From a virus (taxonomy: Duplodnaviria; Heunggongvirae; Uroviricota; Caudoviricetes): a DNA stretch of 15,778 bases. Shown in pieces: positions 1,394 to 14,790 of this stretch. Within the stretch, counting starts at the first letter, position 1. Every line of letters begins with the position of its first letter. Location of the stretch: positions 1 to 15,778 of IMG/VR virus record IMGVR_UViG_2909298281_000001; one strand, written 5' to 3'. A program made the position numbers and the translations under genes. Below the pieces are notes generated by a model. The model was not told the DNA's origin and ran no database searches. It was given only the letters and a program-made list of their open reading frames with translations.

Positions 1394-2296
1394 ATGGAAA
1401 TATCGAAAAATAAAATTTGGGAAGCCAAAGAATGGGAATCTCATGTAAATGATTTACTCCGACTAAAATTTGGTGAAGTAAATTATATATCTATACCTGA
1501 TTTTCATAATGGGGACGCTGGAATTGAGGGATATTGTGTACAGGGATATGCTTTTCAGTCTTATTGTCCTAATGAGGCATGTACAGTTGATAAGTTGTAT
1601 GAAAAACAAAGAGACAAGATGACCGCGGATGTTGCAAAATTCATTTCAGATAAAAAGGGGTATTTAAAAGAAATTCTACAAAACACCAGAATAAAAAGAT
1701 GGATTTTGGTAGTGCCATCTCACTTATCTAAAAAATTGAATGTTCATGCAACAAAAAAAGAAAGTGAAGTTCTAGCTGCTAAATTACCTTATGTTGATAA
1801 TGATGATTTCAAGGTGCTTATTTGGGATCGAGAAAATTTCAAAAAAGAGGAAGATGAATTAATTAGCAGCGGGCTTAGATTATTGAGGATAGAACTTCCT
1901 GAAGTCGATATTAACGATATTGATAATCTAAAAGATAACAATAGCGAGTTTGGCGATAATATTTCAAGGAAGCTTAGAAAGATAAAAAATGATGAGCGTC
2001 AAGTACAGACAGCTTCAACTGTATTATTAAAAAATATAGTTATGTATAAAAACATCATGAGTGGCCTCAAAGATAACTATCCTAGTTTATATGAAAATAT
2101 AACAAATGGTATACTGGATCGTGAGCAAGATTTGTCCTTGGCTTTTTTTGATTCTGAAAATTTGACTCTGACTCAGCAAATTCAACACCTTAATGATAAG
2201 CTAAAACAGTCTAGCCGTCTTCATCAAGATAATCTAAAATGTATTTCTACCGGAGTGGTTGGTGATTGGCTAATGCGCTGTAATTTGGACTTTTAA
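1394..2296 (+). CDS. Hypothetical protein, 300 aa; first gene of hotspot cargo operon (candidate effector)
   Basis: ATG-initiated 300-aa ORF in a markedly A+T-rich segment. Stop TAA at 2294-2296 lies 2 nt before the next ATG (2299), consistent with an operon. No catalytic motif I can assign with confidence; the stretch IPDFHNGDAGIEGYCVQ could be a degenerate nuclease-like acidic motif but this is speculative. Confidence 0.6.
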   Translation: MEISKNKIWEAKEWESHVNDLLRLKFGEVNYISIPDFHNGDAGIEGYCVQGYAFQSYCPNEACTVDKLYEKQRDKMTADVAKFISDKKGYLKEILQNTRIKRWILVVPSHLSKKLNVHATKKESEVLAAKLPYVDNDDFKVLIWDRENFKKEEDELISSGLRLLRIELPEVDINDIDNLKDNNSEFGDNISRKLRKIKNDERQVQTASTVLLKNIVMYKNIMSGLKDNYPSLYENITNGILDREQDLSLAFFDSENLTLTQQIQHLNDKLKQSSRLHQDNLKCISTGVVGDWLMRCNLDF

Positions 2297-2298
2297 TC

Positions 2299-2763
2299 AT
2301 GGATATTCTAAAAGAAACGCCTGAAAAGATGACTTTTAACTCGACTGGTTCGCCTGTTGAACCCGAATTAAGACCCATCTGGAGAATATCCTTGCTTGCT
2401 ATCATTCTTAAAAAACTATGCAGAGGCTCTTCTGCGAGTTTAAAAAAAATGCAAGTTTTATATTCTTTGATTTCCTCCGCCGATAAAAGAAGTCGGTATT
2501 TCACTGAAGGAGGTAATGCGGATATAAGCATTCGGTTTGATCCTCTCTTAGATAGAGCTATTTCGTTGGGAGTGGCAGAAGGTATATTTACTTTGGATGC
2601 TGCAAAAAGCGTTGTGTTAACCAATAAGGGCACGCTCTTATCTAATAAAATTTACAAAGATTCAACATTATTCGTTTTTGAAAAGGAATTTATCGAGAAC
2701 TATAGTAAATCTGAATTTTCCGATAAAAAGATAGATCAAATATTATACAGGGGAATTATATGA
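2299..2763 (+). CDS. Hypothetical protein, 154 aa; middle gene of hotspot cargo operon
   Basis: ORF tightly packed between flanking genes; its stop TGA (2761-2763) overlaps the ATG of the next gene (2760-2762) as ATGA. AGGGGA Shine-Dalgarno-like sequence at 2748-2753 serves the downstream gene. No recognizable motif. Confidence 0.55.
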   Translation: MDILKETPEKMTFNSTGSPVEPELRPIWRISLLAIILKKLCRGSSASLKKMQVLYSLISSADKRSRYFTEGGNADISIRFDPLLDRAISLGVAEGIFTLDAAKSVVLTNKGTLLSNKIYKDSTLFVFEKEFIENYSKSEFSDKKIDQILYRGII

Positions 2764-3987
2764 GCAAACTTAAGATTGAGAGATTAATTATACGAACAAA
2801 TACTAGTGATGGAATATATGGGACAGACCTTAAATTTGGCTATGGTCTAAATATTATAAGTGCTGAGAACTCTTCTGGTAAATCCACCTGTATACAATCA
2901 ATTATTTATGCACTAGGATTGGAGGGAATATTGGGACCATCCAGAAAAAATCCCTTAAAGTCTGCTCTAACTACTAAATTACGTGATAATAATGATACTG
3001 AAATACCGGTTAATGAATCAAAAATTTATCTCCAACTTTCTAACGAACATTCAAGAAAAATAACTATTTTAAGAAAAAGTGATAGTGATATTTCAAAAAT
3101 CGTTACCGTATATGACTGTGAGTTCGATAAAATCAATCCTCACAAATTTACGGACTATTTTTTGAAAGATCCCGGTTCTGCTCAGCGTGAGAAAGGATTT
3201 CATTATTTTCTTTCGAATTTCTTAGGGATAACACAGCCCGAAGTGATTAAATATGATGGAACCAAGTGTCCACTTTATCTTGAGTCAATATTCACAGTTA
3301 ATTATGTAGAGCAAACAAGAGGTTGGGGTGGGATTCTAAATGTTATTCCTACTTACTTGGGTATTAAGGATTTATCACAAAACGTTCTTGAATATACTCT
3401 TAATTTAGATGTTCGAGAAATAAGAAAGAAACGCGAGATATTTTTAGATGAAAAGAAAAATCTTGAAACTAAATGGGCAAATACAATCTCAGAGTTAGAG
3501 TCTAATGCAAAGGCTTATGGCTTCTTTGTATCAACAAGAATACCTGATAAAATCACTACAAAATCAGATACCTATCAAGATAGTGATTTATATACATTGG
3601 ATGAAAATAATCGTGAGATTTCTTTACCACTATACAAGGCTCATAAAGAGAACGAATTAGAATATATTAGAGCACAATTAAAAAATAACGACATCCCTAA
3701 TGATGGGGTGTTAGATTCTGTTCTTGATAGTCTTCGAGTGAATTTAGCTAATCAAGAATATGCTCTTTCATTATTAATCTCTGACATAGAGTCTAATAAA
3801 CTGTATATAAGTTCAATTAATAAGAGTCTGACTGATACAAAAGAAAGTCTTAGAAAATATAGAGATATTGAAAAGCTTAAGTTATTGGGCTCGCAGGAGG
3901 ATTTTTCTTTTGTCACTGGTAGTTGCCCAACTTGTGGACAAGCCGTTGAAGATACTCTCTTACCAGCGAGCTTTGATGGAAAGACAT

Positions 3988-3996
3988 TAACGGTTG
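3988..3996. repeat. IS1 target-site duplication, left copy (TAACGGTTG)
   Basis: 9-bp TAACGGTTG immediately abuts the IS1 end and is repeated exactly at 4765-4773. Confidence 0.88.
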
Positions 3997-4011
3997 GGTA
4001 ATGACTCCAAC

Positions 4012-4515
4012 TTATTGATAGTGTTTTATGTTCAGATAATGCCCGATGACTTTGTCATGCAGCTCCACCGATTTTGAGAACGACAGCGACTTCCGTCCCA
4101 GCCGTGCCAGGTGCTGCCTCAGATTCAGGTTATGCCGCTCAATTCGCTGCGTATATCGCTTGCTGATTACGTGCAGCTTTCCCTTCAGGCGGGATTCATA
4201 CAGCGGCCAGCCATCCGTCATCCATATCACCACGTCAAAGGGTGACAGCAGGCTCATAAGACGCACCAGCGTCGCCATAGTGCGTTCACCGAATACGTGC
4301 GCAACAACCGTCTTCCGGAGCCTGTCATACGCGTAAAACAGCCAGCGCTGGCGCGATTTAGCCCCGACGTATCCCCACTGTTCGTCCATTTCTGCGCAGA
4401 CGATGACGTCACTGCCCGGCTGTATGCGCGAGGTTACCGACTGCGGCCTGAGTTTTTTAAGTGACGTAAAATCGTGTTGAGGCCAACGCCCATAATGCGG
4501 GCAGTTGCCCGGCAT
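4012..4515 (-). CDS. insB: IS1 transposase InsB reading frame, 167 aa (expressed as InsAB' fusion by -1 frameshift)
   Basis: Translation [25 protein letters not shown]...NIKHYQ matches IS1 InsB as I recall it; position and length are canonical within IS1. Confidence 0.9.
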
Positions 4516-4709
4516 CCAACGCCATTCATGGCCATATCAATGATTTTCTGGTGCGTACCGGGTTGAGAAGCGGTGTAAGTGAACTGCAGTTGCCATGTTT
4601 TACGGCAGTGAGAGCAGAGATAGCGCTGATGTCCGGCGGTGCTTTTGCCGTTACGCACCACCCCGTCAGTAGCTGAACAGGAGGGACAGCTGATAGAAAC
4701 AGAAGCCAC
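4434..4709 (-). CDS. insA: IS1 InsA transposition repressor, 91 aa
   Basis: Translation [43 protein letters not shown]... with zinc-finger CxxC..CxxC and HTH region; canonical IS1 InsA length. Confidence 0.93.
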
Positions 4710-4764
4710 TGGAGCACCTCAAAAACACCATCATACACTAAATCAGTAAGTTGGCAGCATCACC

Positions 4765-4773
4765 TAACGGTTG
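4765..4773. repeat. IS1 target-site duplication, right copy (TAACGGTTG)
   Basis: Exact repeat of 3988-3996 immediately after the IS1 terminal repeat. Confidence 0.88.
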
Positions 4774-5582
4774 AAGATAATATAAAGTATCTAGAAAAAA
4801 CCTATGCAGTATTTGATAGCTTGGCAAAAAGTGAAAAAATAAAATTTGAAAGAAAAGAAGCTGCATTAAAAGTAGCTAATGCTAAAGTTCGAGACTTGCG
4901 TAATCAGATCAAAGAAGTTCAGCGTAGCATATCATCTCCTATAAACTCCGAGCTTAGAGAACTCATAAGAAAGGAAGTTAAACTGGAAAAGGATATCGAC
5001 ATTTTAAACTCACTGGAGGAATTCGAAATTAGTAAAAAAGATACACTTATGGCTGTTCTTTCTGATTGGTATGATTGTAATAATCAACTAACAGTACTTC
5101 CGTATGATGGTTTTAGCAAAGCAGATATATTAAAGTTGAGGTTATTACGTGATTCATTTAAATCAAACTTGGAGGATTTTGGTTATAAAAGTACACCAAT
5201 TGAAGAGTTTGATTTATCGAGAAATACATACAAACCAACTGTCGATGGTATAGATATCGGCTCTGAAGCATCCGCCAGTGATAACATTAGGGTGATTTGG
5301 TCATATTTGTATTCATTGTTGATGTTAGATTCCAGTGCAAGAGATATCTCAACTAATCATTTGGGACTGTTGATTATGGATGAACCAAGACAGCAAGAAA
5401 CTAAAGATGCTAGTTTTAGAACACTAATTAAGAAAGCATCTGAGTCGTATATTCAAGAAAAACAGATTATTATGGGTACTAGTGAAAAATTTACTGATTT
5501 AATTGCCATGCTGGATGGTTTGCATGTGAATCTTTTGCATTTCGATAGTAATATTATCCGTAAACAGTAAATCCCTCAATGT

Positions 5583-10474: not shown

Positions 10475-12808
10475 ATGAAAATGAACGTAACCGCCACCGT
10501 CAGTCATGCGCTCGGCCACTGGCCGCGTATTCTCCCGGCGCTGGGGATTCAGGTGCTGAAAAACCGTCATCAGCCCTGTCCGGTCTGTGGCGGGAGTGAC
10601 CGCTTCCGTTTTGATGACAGGGAGGGGCGCGGCACCTGGTACTGCAATCAGTGTGGTGCCGGTGACGGCCTGAAACTGGTTGAAAAGGTGTTTGGTGTTT
10701 CCCCGTCCGACGCGGCCGCAAAGGTGGCTGCCGTGACCGGCAGCCTGCCCCCGGCTGACCCGGCAGTGACGGCCGCCGCCGTTGCTGAAACAGAAGCCGC
10801 CCGGAAGAACGCCGCCGCACTGGCACAAACCCTGATGGCGAAAACCCGTCCCGGAACCGGTAACGCCTACCTGACCCGCAAGGGCTTTCCCGGCCGGGAA
10901 TGCCGGATGCTGACCGGCACACACAGAGCCGGTGGCGTGAGCTGGCGCGCCGGTGACCTTGTGGTGCCACTGTATGACGACAGCGGCGAACTGGTTAACC
11001 TTCAGTTAATCAGTGCTGACGGCCGTAAGCGCACCCTGAAAGGCGGACAGGTCAGGGGCACCTGTCACATCCTTGAAGGACAGAATCAGGCCGGAAAACG
11101 TCTGTGGATAGCGGAGGGATACGCGACCGCACTTACCGTGCATCACCTGACCGGTGAAACGGTGATGGTGGCGCTTTCTTCCGTGAACCTCCTTTCTCTG
11201 GCCAGACTTGCCCGGCAGAAGCATCCGGCCTGTCAGATTGTCCTTGCCGCAGACCGTGACCTCAGCGGTGACGGCCAGAAAAAAGCCGCCGCAGCCGCAG
11301 ATGCGTGTGAAGGTGTTGTTGCCCTGCCGCCGGTCTTCGGTGACTGGAATGATGCCTTCACGCAGTACGGCGGGGAGGCCACCCGTAAGGCCATTTACGA
11401 TGCCATCCGGCCACCGGCTGAAAGCCCGTTCGACACCATGAGCGAAGCGGAGTTTTCCGCCATGAGTACCAGCGAAAAGGCCATGCGTATCTATGAGCAT
11501 TACGGCGAGGCGCTCGCGGTCGATGCCAACGGCCAGCTTCTGTCCCGTTATGAAAATGGTGTCTGGAAGGTGCTGCCGCCACAGGACTTTGCCCGGGATG
11601 TGGCCGGGCTGTTTCAGCGGCTGCGCGCGCCGTTCTCCTCCGGGAAGGTGGCCTCCGTGGTGGACACCCTGAAGCTGATTATTCCGCAGCAGGAAGCCCC
11701 CTCCCGCCGCCTGATTGGCTTTCGTAACGGTGTGCTCGACACACAGAACGGCACGTTCCACCCGCACAGTCCGTCACACTGGATGCGCACCCTGTGTGAT
11801 GTGGATTTCACCCCACCGGTGGAAGGGGAAACGCTGGAAACCCACGCCCCCGCGTTCTGGCGCTGGCTTGACCGTGCCGCCGGTGGCCGTGCGGAAAAAC
11901 GCGACGTGATTCTGGCCGCACTGTTTATGGTGCTGGCAAACCGCTACGACTGGCAGCTCTTTCTGGAGGTGACCGGTCCCGGCGGCAGCGGCAAAAGTAT
12001 CATGGCCGAAATAGCCACCCTGCTGGCCGGGGAGGATAACGCCACATCGGCCACCATTGAGACGCTGGAATCCCCGCGTGAACGTGCCGCGTTAACTGGC
12101 TTCTCACTGATACGCCTGCCTGACCAGGAAAAATGGAGCGGCGACGGTGCCGGACTCAAGGCCATCACCGGCGGCGATGCGGTGTCCGTTGACCCGAAAT
12201 ACCGGGATGCGTACTCCACGCACATCCCGGCGGTGATTCTGGCCGTGAACAATAACCCGATGCGCTTCACCGACCGCAGCGGCGGCGTGTCACGCCGGCG
12301 GGTGATTATTCACTTCCCTGAACAGATAGCCCCGCAGGAGCGCGACCCGCAGCTTAAGGACAAAATCACCCGCGAGCTGGCGGTCATCGTGCGTCACCTG
12401 ATGCAGAAATTCAGCGACCCGATGCTCGCCCGGTCACTGCTTCAGTCCCAGCAGAACTCAGACGAGGCGCTGAACATCAAACGGGATGCCGACCCGACGT
12501 TTGATTTTATCGGCTATCTGGAAACCCTGCCGCAGACCAGCGGCATGTATATGGGGAACGCCAGTATCATCCCGCGCAATTACCGTAAATACCTCTATCA
12601 CGCCTATCTGGCCTACATGGAGGCAAACGGCTACCGGAACGTACTCAGTCTGAAAATGTTCGGGCTGGGGCTGCCGGTGATGCTGAAGGAATACGGACTG
12701 AATTACGAGAAGCGCCATACCAAACAGGGGATACAGACCAACCTGACACTGAAAGAGGAAAGCTACGGCGACTGGCTGCCAAAATGTGACGACCCTGCAA
12801 CAGCCTGA
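10475..12808 (+). CDS. alpha: Alpha primase-helicase replication protein, 777 aa
   Basis: AAGGAGA ribosome-binding site (10460-10466). N-terminal zinc-binding CPVCGGSDRF...YCNQCGAGDG followed by a primase-type acidic region (..LAADRDLSGDGQ..). Central Walker A GPGGSGKS and D5-type SF3 helicase region. 777 aa is the P4 alpha length as I recall. Confidence 0.95.
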   Translation: MKMNVTATVSHALGHWPRILPALGIQVLKNRHQPCPVCGGSDRFRFDDREGRGTWYCNQCGAGDGLKLVEKVFGVSPSDAAAKVAAVTGSLPPADPAVTAAAVAETEAARKNAAALAQTLMAKTRPGTGNAYLTRKGFPGRECRMLTGTHRAGGVSWRAGDLVVPLYDDSGELVNLQLISADGRKRTLKGGQVRGTCHILEGQNQAGKRLWIAEGYATALTVHHLTGETVMVALSSVNLLSLARLARQKHPACQIVLAADRDLSGDGQKKAAAAADACEGVVALPPVFGDWNDAFTQYGGEATRKAIYDAIRPPAESPFDTMSEAEFSAMSTSEKAMRIYEHYGEALAVDANGQLLSRYENGVWKVLPPQDFARDVAGLFQRLRAPFSSGKVASVVDTLKLIIPQQEAPSRRLIGFRNGVLDTQNGTFHPHSPSHWMRTLCDVDFTPPVEGETLETHAPAFWRWLDRAAGGRAEKRDVILAALFMVLANRYDWQLFLEVTGPGGSGKSIMAEIATLLAGEDNATSATIETLESPRERAALTGFSLIRLPDQEKWSGDGAGLKAITGGDAVSVDPKYRDAYSTHIPAVILAVNNNPMRFTDRSGGVSRRRVIIHFPEQIAPQERDPQLKDKITRELAVIVRHLMQKFSDPMLARSLLQSQQNSDEALNIKRDADPTFDFIGYLETLPQTSGMYMGNASIIPRNYRKYLYHAYLAYMEANGYRNVLSLKMFGLGLPVMLKEYGLNYEKRHTKQGIQTNLTLKEESYGDWLPKCDDPATA

Positions 12809-12815
12809 CCCACCT

Positions 12816-12841
12816 GACCGGCATCTGCCGGTCTTTTTTTT
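12816..12841 (+). terminator. Rho-independent terminator after alpha
   Basis: GACCGGCA-TC-TGCCGGTC perfect 8-bp stem (12816-12833) followed directly by a run of eight T (12834-12841), 8 nt after the alpha stop. Confidence 0.75.
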
Positions 12842-12856
12842 ATCCCGATATCCCCC

Positions 12857-13160
12857 GAAGGTGAACAATCCACTGTTCACCCTTCACCGTATGTTCACCC
12901 GTTATCACACTGAAATTAAAAGAGAAAAACGAAAGGTGAACAGTGTGAACAATCAAATCAAAAAAAACTTTTTTCTTCCTGAGTGATTTCAGTACGGGGG
13001 ATTAATCACCGGTATGAGTCACACCGGCAGAATGCCGGAGGTGAAGAATCGAATGTTCACCCTTCACCCATTATTCACCATCTATTACTCTGAAATAAAA
13101 GGAGAAAATCAAAGGGTGAACAGTGTGAACAGTTCTTCCGAAAAAAAATTTTTTATGTGG
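12857..13160. repeat. crr (cis replication region): two direct repeats of about 120 bp, each with several TGTTCACC/GGTGAACA iterons
   Basis: Unit 1 about 12857-12980 and unit 2 about 13037-13160 align closely (e.g. ..GTTCACCCTTCACC..CTGAAAT.AAAAG.AGAAAA.C.AAAGGTGAACAGTGTGAACA..AAAAAAA.TTTTTT). The about 60-bp spacing matches my recollection of P4 crr. Confidence 0.7.
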
Positions 13161-13344
13161 GTAAAAGATGCACTGGTTTGGATCCGAGCTACGGATCCAA
13201 ACTCACTGATTAAAAATTAGTTAACTTTCCGATTTGTTGATGGGTTGAAAATAGATTGGTCAGAAAAACAGTGGGGGCACAAAAGGGGGCATATTTCATT
13301 TTTGTTTTTTATTATTTGTTTTTTATCATTGACTTATTTTGATA

Positions 13345-13366
13345 TTTGAGTCCGGCCTTCGCACCT
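13345..13366 (+). other. Candidate attR core: degenerate copy of a tRNA 3' end (right boundary of the element)
   Basis: TTTGAGTCCGGCCTTCGCACC resembles a tRNA T-arm/acceptor 3' end (TTCGAGTCCGGCCTTCGGCACCA type), with one substitution and one deletion relative to my recollection of a leucine tRNA end. Located after crr where attR is expected. Confidence 0.45.
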
Positions 13367-13575
13367 TCGCACCATCGGAACATCAATAGACATCAACGGA
13401 CGTTTTTTTATGACTGAAATCCGCGCCACACAAGGCTTTTCGCTATTTTTCGCTCAACCTAAGTCAACCTACATCAACTTACTGATGTGGATACAGCTAC
13501 AGCTGCGGCTATACCCCGATTCGATAATGTTTGTACCCACACAAAACCCTTGAAAGGCTACAAGGCTGAAATTGT

Positions 13576-13794
13576 CTAAACCATAGAGATGATTTTTATG
13601 ATCCAGTCTTTCTCTTGTTGAGATAGTTCCAGTTTGCTCACTCGTGTTAAGAAGGTATTGATCACCTGAACATCCGAATTGGTGAGCCTATTTAATAGAG
13701 CGGGTGGTATACCTTTACTAACAATCGCTTTGCGGTGACTTTCGTAGTTTTTATTACTCATTGTTGATCCTAAAAAATCATTGTATGGCGGCAT
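13576..13794 (-). CDS. Hypothetical small ORF, 72 aa (possibly the downstream fragment of a frameshifted gene)
   Basis: ORF from track only; lies 23 nt downstream of the 80-aa ORF on the same strand in a different frame. Confidence 0.3.
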   Translation of the reverse strand: MPPYNDFLGSTMSNKNYESHRKAIVSKGIPPALLNRLTNSDVQVINTFLTRVSKLELSQQEKDWIIKIISMV

Positions 13795-13817
13795 TGATCG
13801 TTTCCAGCAACCTTTAC

Positions 13818-14060
13818 TTACTCACTTCGAACTGCATCCTCGTAGACTGTTCCACTACAATAATCGAAAAGGCGCGGATGTCCATTCAGGTATCCCGCTA
13901 ATACGTATAGCAATAACAATGGCTTATGCGGCGCGCGCTGTTCACCCTTGTGCCAGATTTTTATATTGGCAATTGCCTGCTGTAGCGATTTACTGGAAGC
14001 TATTGATATCCCTGGCAGTGAAATAATTGCGATCATGCTCGCAAATTTTCTGCTGTTCAA
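13818..14060 (-). CDS. Hypothetical small ORF, 80 aa
   Basis: ORF from track. Weak local resemblance (I-x-I-W-x-x-G-E ... P) to the N-terminal region of the divergent HNH-domain protein at 14140..14790. Confidence 0.3.
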   Translation of the reverse strand: MNSRKFASMIAIISLPGISIASSKSLQQAIANIKIWHKGEQRAPHKPLLLLYVLAGYLNGHPRLFDYCSGTVYEDAVRSE

Positions 14061-14139
14061 GCCTGCAAGTGAAGATATATTACCTTGATCTCATTTGTTT
14101 TTTTGCTGCCTGTTCTGAGAACGTATAAGGACATTCTCC

Positions 14140-14790
14140 ATGAATAAACTCCCTGATCATCTTCCGCGGCGGTATATCATCGAAGCTATCCATTTATGGG
14201 ATGCGGGAGAAACTCATCAGTTCCAGCCTGCGCGGTTGTATGAGATTGAATATCATGGCCGACGTTACCCCTCGAAGGCGATTGCTGGCATCGCAGCGAC
14301 ATTGATGACGGGGACGCAATTTACCCCTGCGGATTTCACCGGCGGAATAAAATCTAAATGTGTCAAGCTACTCATAGAGCAGGGATTTCATATTCATCTG
14401 GATAAAGCCGCTGCGGCTCCCATAGCCGACGTTCTGTTCCCGGATGAGTTGCCGTCGCAGGAGACATACCTTGAAGGTGCGGCGATAAAGGTGACAGTAA
14501 ACCGCTATGAACGCGATAAAAAGGCCCGAGATAAAGCGGTCGAACATCATGGATGCCAGTGCAACGTATGCGGTGTTGATCTGGTGAAGATCTATGGTGA
14601 TATCGCTGAAGGCTTTATCCATGTGCATCACCTGGTGCCGCTGTCAGCCATTAAAGAGGATTACCAGCTGGATCCAGTTAATGATTTGCTGCCTGTGTAC
14701 CCTAATTGCCATGCGATGTTGCACCGACGCAAACCACCGTTTACGCCGGAGCAGTTAAAAGCGCTGATGGATGCGAATAAATCAAATTAA
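14140..14790 (+). CDS. HNH endonuclease-domain protein, 216 aa, with an uncharacterized N-terminal domain
   Basis: C-terminal HNH-type motif CQCNVCGV...HVHHLVPLS...N...YPNCHAMLH (two Cys pairs plus His-His and Asn). The N-terminal 130 aa has no motif I can assign. Confidence 0.75.
   Translation: MNKLPDHLPRRYIIEAIHLWDAGETHQFQPARLYEIEYHGRRYPSKAIAGIAATLMTGTQFTPADFTGGIKSKCVKLLIEQGFHIHLDKAAAAPIADVLFPDELPSQETYLEGAAIKVTVNRYERDKKARDKAVEHHGCQCNVCGVDLVKIYGDIAEGFIHVHHLVPLSAIKEDYQLDPVNDLLPVYPNCHAMLHRRKPPFTPEQLKALMDANKSN

Follow-up and report, generated by a model that had tools for sequence, protein, structure and literature searches.

The attachment sites of phage P4 at the tRNA gene leuX (attP and attR) were reportedly described by Pierson and Kahn in 1987. 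The P4 record annotates five 'attP arm sequence repeats' of the form GGGGGCAYA, two of which are direct copies on the P arm while two direct copies and one inverted copy lie beside the integrase gene (int). Just upstream of the latter repeats, the P′ arm of P4 carries four units phased at 10 bp (cgTCCtgcgt ctTCCgaggt tgTCCgttga aaTCCgg; L090 2436–2475). The P4 protein Vis binds within attP (PMC2603039) and has been reported to repress the int promoter (PMC2603039; PMC7286903), and P4-type int promoters carry IHF sites (PMC7286903). More generally, the operators of recombination directionality factors (RDFs) typically consist of units repeated in direct orientation at a spacing of one helical turn, an example being those of 186 Apl (PMC7498355). 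The X1-X2 sites of lambda Xis, the 186 Apl sites and the P2 Cox boxes are all one-turn direct repeats on one arm, located between the core and the arm-type sites, and these arrays overlap the control of the integrase promoter (PMC7498355). In Escherichia coli K-12 the spacer between leuX and the integrase gene intB belongs to the cryptic prophage PR-Y/KpLE2. The leuX locus is defence hotspot #37, which is highly occupied and integrase-anchored (PMC12707154). In the tandem accretion of islands at tRNA genes, a newer element inserted at the tRNA displaces the older attL, which persists as an internal relic.

The window analysed here, the whole stretch of 15,778 nucleotides (15.8 kb), contains a P4-like satellite prophage and, after it, genes of the chromosome, with the tRNA-Leu gene leuX as the integration site. 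Closed E. coli genomes with the identical arrangement carry the satellite between leuX and nanS-nanM-nanC-fimB. The P4-type integrase is encoded at 1–1260 and displays Arm-DNA-bind_3, Phage_int_M and Phage_integrase domains; psu, delta, a Vis/AlpA gene and ash are also present in the satellite, and the alpha primase is encoded at 10475–12808. Positions 12800–13365, spanning the cis replication region (crr), the P-arm repeats and the core, are 95.9% identical to P4 (X51522). The crr (approximately 12854–13153, plus strand), as annotated in the P4 record, comprises two 120-bp direct repeats with GGTGAACA/TGTTCACC iterons. The satellite's own P-arm integrase repeats, AGTGGGGGCACA and AAAGGGGGCATA, are two direct copies at 13270–13293 (plus strand), identical to the two P-arm features of the P4 record, and the P′ arm has three further copies beside int. 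The left half of the region under study is thus the P arm of P4, with crr, two GGGGGCAYA repeats and a leuX-derived core.

Some features of the satellite lie apart from its attachment site. The cargo at 1394–5570 is a Lamassu defence system consisting of lmuA (1394–2296), lmuC (2299–2763) and lmuB, the last of which is split by an IS1 element into 2760–4001 and 4821–5570 (IS1 transposase, 4012–4515, minus strand); the split lmuB has probably inactivated the system. A small open reading frame within the crr repeats (13014–13220 in the window, 15904–16200 in L003 and 2976–3200 in L004) is called 'integrase' in some RefSeq records. The label is probably a misannotation, since the window version, 13014–13220, gave no Pfam match.

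The att-like core derived from a tRNA, recognized in the initial annotation, was borne out. Comparison with the intact leuX in L003 showed that 13345–13374 (plus strand) is a copy of the leuX 3′ end, and ARAGORN, run on the whole window, called no tRNA; the core is a leuX 3′ fragment only. It consists of GAGTCCGGCCTTCGCACC (13348–13365) followed by a second TTCGCACC and an A (13366–13374), the 8-bp unit TTCGCACC therefore standing twice in succession (13358–13373). Compared with the leuX 3′ end, GAGTCCGGCCTTCGGCACCA, the core has one G fewer and the 8-bp duplication, and it differs from P4 in the same two features. The unit TTCGCACC behaves as a small variable-number repeat within the att core: among the loci compared, which include L002 and L004, its copy number at the attR junction is three for strains ET210 and H6 and two for the window, L001 and L003. 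Cores of the attR type that are one G short of leuX (CTTCGCACCA versus CTTCGGCACCA) were observed for this integrase family in several genera (window 13348–13374; L063 14167; L087 18793; L070 882 and 9781; L081 9795), while the tRNA copy retains GG. These one-G-short cores suggest that strand exchange would occur to the right of GG, within about CACCAT.

Homology to P4 ends at 13365, within the core, and the identical flank, from the core onward, also sits behind unrelated islands in other strains. The satellite junction can therefore be placed at the core. In strain DLI.5a a near-identical satellite lies between an intact leuX and the same right flank, and the P4 P′ arm is found at attL beside int, not at the right flank. 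Placing the right boundary of the satellite at the core is useful for delimiting P4-like elements and their cargo.

A sensitive homology search with 13367–13575 as the query revealed that about 1,280 E. coli genomes carry this flank, behind differing islands. In addition, copies that are ∼79% identical fill the space between leuX and an intact tyrosine integrase gene, adjoining both (loci L006 and L007). Positions 13367–13561 are collinear, at ∼80% identity, with the leuX-int spacers of SCU-102, 23CRST050, K-12 intB and 60-odd other loci, which upholds the proposal in the initial annotation that the flank could be a remnant of an earlier element at the same tRNA. In blastn the similarity to intact islands ends at position 13561, 5 bp short of their ATG. 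A tblastn search of the window for a second integrase detected none, the P4-type int at 1–1260 being the only one. Scanning one genome per species returned 80 loci from many Enterobacterales genera with integrases of 79–97% identity; nearly all follow a leuX-type tRNA with the same spacer, and the K-12 leuX-intB spacer belongs to the same family. On the strength of this homology, 13375–13561 can be recognized as a fossil, the attL (P′) arm left by an intB-family island after deletion of int. As the adjacent integrase gene is absent, the structure is a relic and not a functional attL.

The relative age of the two elements is indicated by strain HCP6S3_I1, which has no element between leuX and the relic: leuX is directly followed by the same relic, an arrangement found in 1 of 5,426 E. 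coli genomes. The relic must therefore predate insertion of the satellite. In HCP6S3_I1 (L005 5086–5130) the first ∼40 bp after the tRNA are K-12-like, with the terminator intact, and the remainder is the relic, as if recombination between tandem P′ arms had removed an island. The intact SCU-102 island was also searched for its right end (P arm) and no second core was found, implying that this island is fixed in place. The island of 23CRST050 exceeds 50 kb and is mosaic, and was thus of no use for locating the P arm. Relic arms of still other integrase types accumulate at leuX in other genera too. More P′-arm-like repeats occur beyond attR in Brenneria (L063 14330–14420) and Morganella (L087 18920–18960), the sets comprising GGGGTCAAG three times with an inverted copy, and AGGGGC repeats.

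To the right of the relic, conserved sequence extends from 13576 to 14790. RefSeq annotation of identical stretches places there a pseudogene fragment of a phosphorothioate-dependent restriction endonuclease (13576–13794, minus strand) and an HNH endonuclease gene (14140–14790, plus strand), and the PHROGs and PADLOC matches in this interval are to HNH and type IV restriction enzyme.

The anatomy of the relic was established by aligning 21 non-redundant intact leuX-int spacers (representatives <92% identity). After the CCA end the intact spacer displays, in order, a short variable linker, a terminator hairpin with T7, a conserved ATGCCTGAAATCC block, four 10-bp units of the form nTCAAYnnnn, arm repeats around GGTTCGATAAT, a ribosome-binding site and int. 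In intact relatives the terminator, AGACGTCAACGGACGTCT plus T7, folds at −10.8 kcal/mol and is called by a terminator scan. Across lineages the hairpins range from −10.8 to −14.1 kcal/mol, with the compensatory variants GACGTC/GACGTC, GACCTCAACTGAGGTC and GTCACC...GGTGGC; a G+C-rich hairpin, a T run and compensatory substitutions identify the element as the leuX terminator in these relatives. In the window the equivalent sequence, 13375–13409 (plus strand), has suffered a G-to-A change and a 2-bp loss that destroy the hairpin; it folds at −1.0 kcal/mol and was not detected when the window was scanned for terminators. A weak terminator-like call was made elsewhere, at 13548–13565 on the minus strand, overlapping the deletion junction.

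The remaining elements of the spacer show similar decay. Of the four phased units, three are retained in the window at 13453–13482 (plus strand): R1, TCAAC at 13454–13458; R2 at 13464–13468; and R4, ATCAAC at 13473–13478. R3 has been lost through an exact 10-bp deletion. In Scandinavium (L054), upstream of int, one 10-bp TCAAY unit is likewise missing and is not the one lost from the window, indicating that unit number changes by whole-unit slippage even beside an intact int. Where intact class A islands have GCGGGTACAACTGCGGGTATA, the relic has two decayed direct repeats (13487–13513, plus strand), GTGGATACA at 13487–13495 and GCGGCTATA at 13505–13513, with a 6-bp insertion. These are followed at 13520–13540 (plus strand) by the conserved GGTTCGATAAT block, defined on the 21 representatives, and the inverted repeat TGTACCCAC (13532–13540). 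In these representatives few parts of the spacer are as well conserved as the GGTTCGATAAT block, of which a few variants occur (for example GATTCGATAAT), and we infer that it is the putative −10 region of the int promoter. A simple sigma-70 promoter scan of the intact spacer called no int promoter, and the assignment is therefore kept at that strength. The window still has the inverted repeat TGTACCCAC, and also GAAAGG, the ribosome-binding site of int; homology ends with the latter (13552–13561, plus strand), and int is deleted from here.

The repeats that had drawn attention to this region, CATCAAC and TCAACC, are real and above chance on the right side of the core. TCAACC occurs at 13454–13459 and 13464–13469, and CATCAAC at 13472–13478 and 13391–13397. 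With eight copies of TCAAY or its complement, against a window mean of 1.17 per 256 bp, the interval 13228–13483 is richer in them than any other part of the window. A triple at 10-bp phasing occurs only once in the window, at 13454/13464/13474, and was recovered in 1 of 1,000 Markov-1 shuffles. The initial annotation located the array at 13454–13483 exactly and was one base off for the copies assigned to 13379–13398, as ACATCAAT occupies 13380–13387. The five copies that it reported at about 10-bp phasing are present; they form, however, two groups 61 bp apart, 13383/13393 and 13454/13464/13474. The two core-proximal copies, ACATCAAT and GACATCAAC, sit in the linker and the terminator stem-loop, and lineages with other hairpins are without them. 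On the left of the core, the supposed inverted motif is GTTGATGGGTTGA (13236–13248, minus strand), but it belongs to the normal P arm of P4; at this position both P4 and the DLI.5a prophage have ATTGATGGGCTGA, and since two base changes from ATTGATGGGCTGA create GTTGATGGGTTGA the resemblance is an unconserved product of chance. The picture of motifs flanking the core in opposite orientations is thus not supported, given the unconserved left copy and the location of the two core-proximal copies in a terminator hairpin. The anticodon stem of leuX, GTTGATTCAAAATCAACC (L003 5534–5553), holds the TCAACC motif and its complement, which is probably coincidence.

Which of the spacer repeats are arm-type sites can be addressed by comparing integrase classes and both arms of complete elements. 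The repeats around GGTTCGATAAT in intB-family spacers, two direct and one inverted, occupy the positions of the annotated arm repeats of P4. Their sequence switches by class, with GGGTAYA/TACCC in class A, GAGTATA/TATACTC in class B and TGGTAYA/TACCA in class D, direct and inverted copies changing together, and the repeat classes track class-specific residues in the N-terminal Arm-DNA-bind_3 domain of the integrase. Direct repeats are also found on the P arm. The complete Morganella island (GTGGGTACAAGTGCGGGTATAAC) and the large E. coli island (GTGTTGGTATCTGTGTTGGTATAAG) each have two direct copies, with the attR core 55–85 bp to their right. The P-arm direct repeats are thus GGGGGCAYA in P4 and GGGTAYA or TTGGTAT in L087 or L091/L001, while Brenneria L063 has only a single GAGTATACA. 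By contrast, phased TCAAY was absent from the P arms of the four kinds examined (P4, Morganella L087, Brenneria L063 and E. coli L091/L001). Within the P′ arm the TCAAY units are unchanged across integrase classes A and B while the neighbouring repeats switch. Presence on both arms, co-change with the integrase N-terminal domain and positional equivalence to the P4 repeats are therefore all lacking in TCAAY. The GCGGGTAYA-type repeats at 13487–13540, on these comparisons, fit the definition of true arm-type sites. TCAAY probably does not belong to this type of integrase site, because its units are absent from the examined P arms, constant in classes A and B and not aligned with the P4 repeats.

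Compared with the known systems, the layout of the relic is like that of the P4 P′ arm, where phased short units precede two direct repeats and one inverted repeat around the start of int, although the arm repeats differ in sequence and the place of TCAAY is taken in P4 by phased TCC(G) units. These units match the TCAAY array in position and may represent the Vis boxes. K-12 PR-Y/KpLE2 shares with the relic the integrase family, the terminator, TCAAY-type units, co-varying arm repeats and GGTTCGATAAT. It differs in retaining an intB pseudogene, while the relic has lost int entirely, and in having class D arm repeats (TGGTAYA), those of the relic being class A-like (GGGTAYA). With regard to tandem accretion there is no substantive difference, and the window is a standard example.

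The TCAAY array has the form of an RDF operator. The units are direct repeats at exact 10-bp spacing, four in intact islands and three in the window, and they were seen on the P′ arm only, where they stand 80–110 bp away from the core, directly precede the arm repeats and lie just before the integrase promoter region. Over the 21 spacers TCAAY positions have a conservation of 0.886 against 0.729 for spacer positions, a moderate gap, and the T of every TCAAY unit is invariant; in class D islands, where the units vary as CTCTC/ATCTAC, R1 is weak and R4 is ATCTAC. In living islands the array would most likely serve as the operator of an architectural protein, of excisionase type or another, that would bend the arm and control the int promoter. 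In contrast to the lambda Xis, 186 Apl and P2 Cox arrays, no cognate RDF was found for TCAAY here. Pfam and PHROGs searches, covering small open reading frames, revealed no AlpA/Vis-type or other recognizable excisionase in L063 and L087, the two small islands that are complete. Within 10 kb of int, an AlpA/Vis-like gene was likewise lacking from most of the 80 loci; a few distal matches occurred. A tblastn search of 84 loci, with the window Vis and an approximate AlpA sequence as queries, returned few matches, which were distal or in upstream elements only. The HTH gene beside the SCU-102 int was considered as an excisionase and rejected, as it encodes a Cro/C1-type regulator of restriction-modification cargo. 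Elsewhere, an HTH_3 (XRE-type) gene with a conserved C-terminus ends just left of the Brenneria P arm (L063 13242–14063), and a fragment of it persists in E. coli, where it marks the right end of the large island at leuX (L091 19702–19830); the HTH_3 protein is a possible candidate island regulator.

The explanation that we consider highly probable is that the window holds a compound junction produced by two successive insertions at leuX, in which the TCAAY array would be an operator-type element and not a set of arm sites. An intB-family island with a P4-type tyrosine integrase once stood directly after leuX, its left end comprising the leuX terminator, four TCAAY repeats phased at 10 bp, the putative int promoter with three arm-type repeats around it, and the ribosome-binding site of int. 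This left end survives as 13375–13561, with int deleted and the small sites decaying. A P4-like satellite later integrated into leuX, such that its attR, consisting of the GGGGGCAYA P arm and the core (13345–13374), now abuts the relic. The initial annotation had also raised the prospect that the P4-like element runs past 13374 and that the true junction lies further right. The location of repeats on the supposed chromosomal side of the core would be in keeping with this, but the end of P4 homology at 13365, the position of the P4 P′ arm at attL beside int in DLI.5a and the identical flank after unrelated islands, as well as directly after leuX in HCP6S3_I1, make it the least probable of the readings. 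That the flank is plain native chromosome, with repeats that arose by chance or composition and are unrelated to mobile elements, is also very improbable. The presence of leuX directly before the flank in HCP6S3_I1 and the fixation of the relic in many E. coli genomes would suit such an origin; neither accounts for collinear homology, up to the ribosome-binding site, to the spacer before intact integrase genes in many genera, nor for a phased triple seen in 1 of 1,000 shuffles and periodic conservation across relatives.

The nature of the array itself admits two other interpretations. The proposal of the initial annotation, that CATCAAC/TCAACC are arm-type sites bound by the N-terminal domain of the relic's or the P4-like integrase, draws on the fact that the repeats are short, phased, conserved and beside int in intact islands, and that intB-family integrases have an Arm-DNA-bind_3 domain. 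It appears quite unlikely, however, as the annotated arm repeats of P4 are GGGGGCAYA and align with the GCGGGTAYA-type repeats at 13487–13540, not with 13453–13482. It is this other set, at the equivalent positions and on both arms, that varies with the integrase N-terminal domain, while TCAAY is constant in classes A and B and absent from the examined P arms, and the left copy is unconserved. A doubtful but more serious prospect is that the array is a host-factor or promoter-architecture element (IHF-like or for a direct-repeat response regulator) and not an excisionase operator, because no cognate RDF gene was found. Its position ∼50–90 bp upstream of the presumed −10, its conservation across integrase classes, as for the site of a host protein, the lack of an island-encoded excisionase in the searched islands and loci, and the IHF sites of P4-type int promoters (PMC7286903) are all in its favour. 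Four 10-bp-phased units are nevertheless atypical of IHF. By-eye comparison found no full match to the IHF consensus, WATCAANNNNTTR, and no match was seen among the regulator motifs considered, the comparison of TCAAY with those of direct-repeat response regulators, also by eye, giving none that was convincing. An operator for an excisionase-type or other architectural protein thus remains the preferred reading, and we tentatively propose, as a possibility short of an even expectation, that the TCAAY units constitute a previously uncharacterized, family-wide control element of intB-type leuX integrases in K-12 and Enterobacterales, which would be bound by an unrecognized excisionase or host protein that sets the mobility of the hotspot. 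The copy in the window is a fossil, as int is gone and the neighbouring sites have decayed.

The ordinary explanation of the junction is that serial insertion at a tRNA hotspot leaves a relic attL beside a newer attR, and the site in the window is itself non-functional. The apparent chromosome beside leuX in most E. coli genomes is, accordingly, a fossil integrase arm, and predictions of att sites that seek repeats near tRNA fragments can be misled by such older relics. What is new here, and only that, is the comparative split of the intB-family P′ arm into two classes of site. In the intB/P4 integrase family these are arm-type repeats that vary with the integrase and a conserved phased array, and the division defines sites at which binding experiments can be aimed in the E. 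coli defence-island hotspot with the heaviest occupation.
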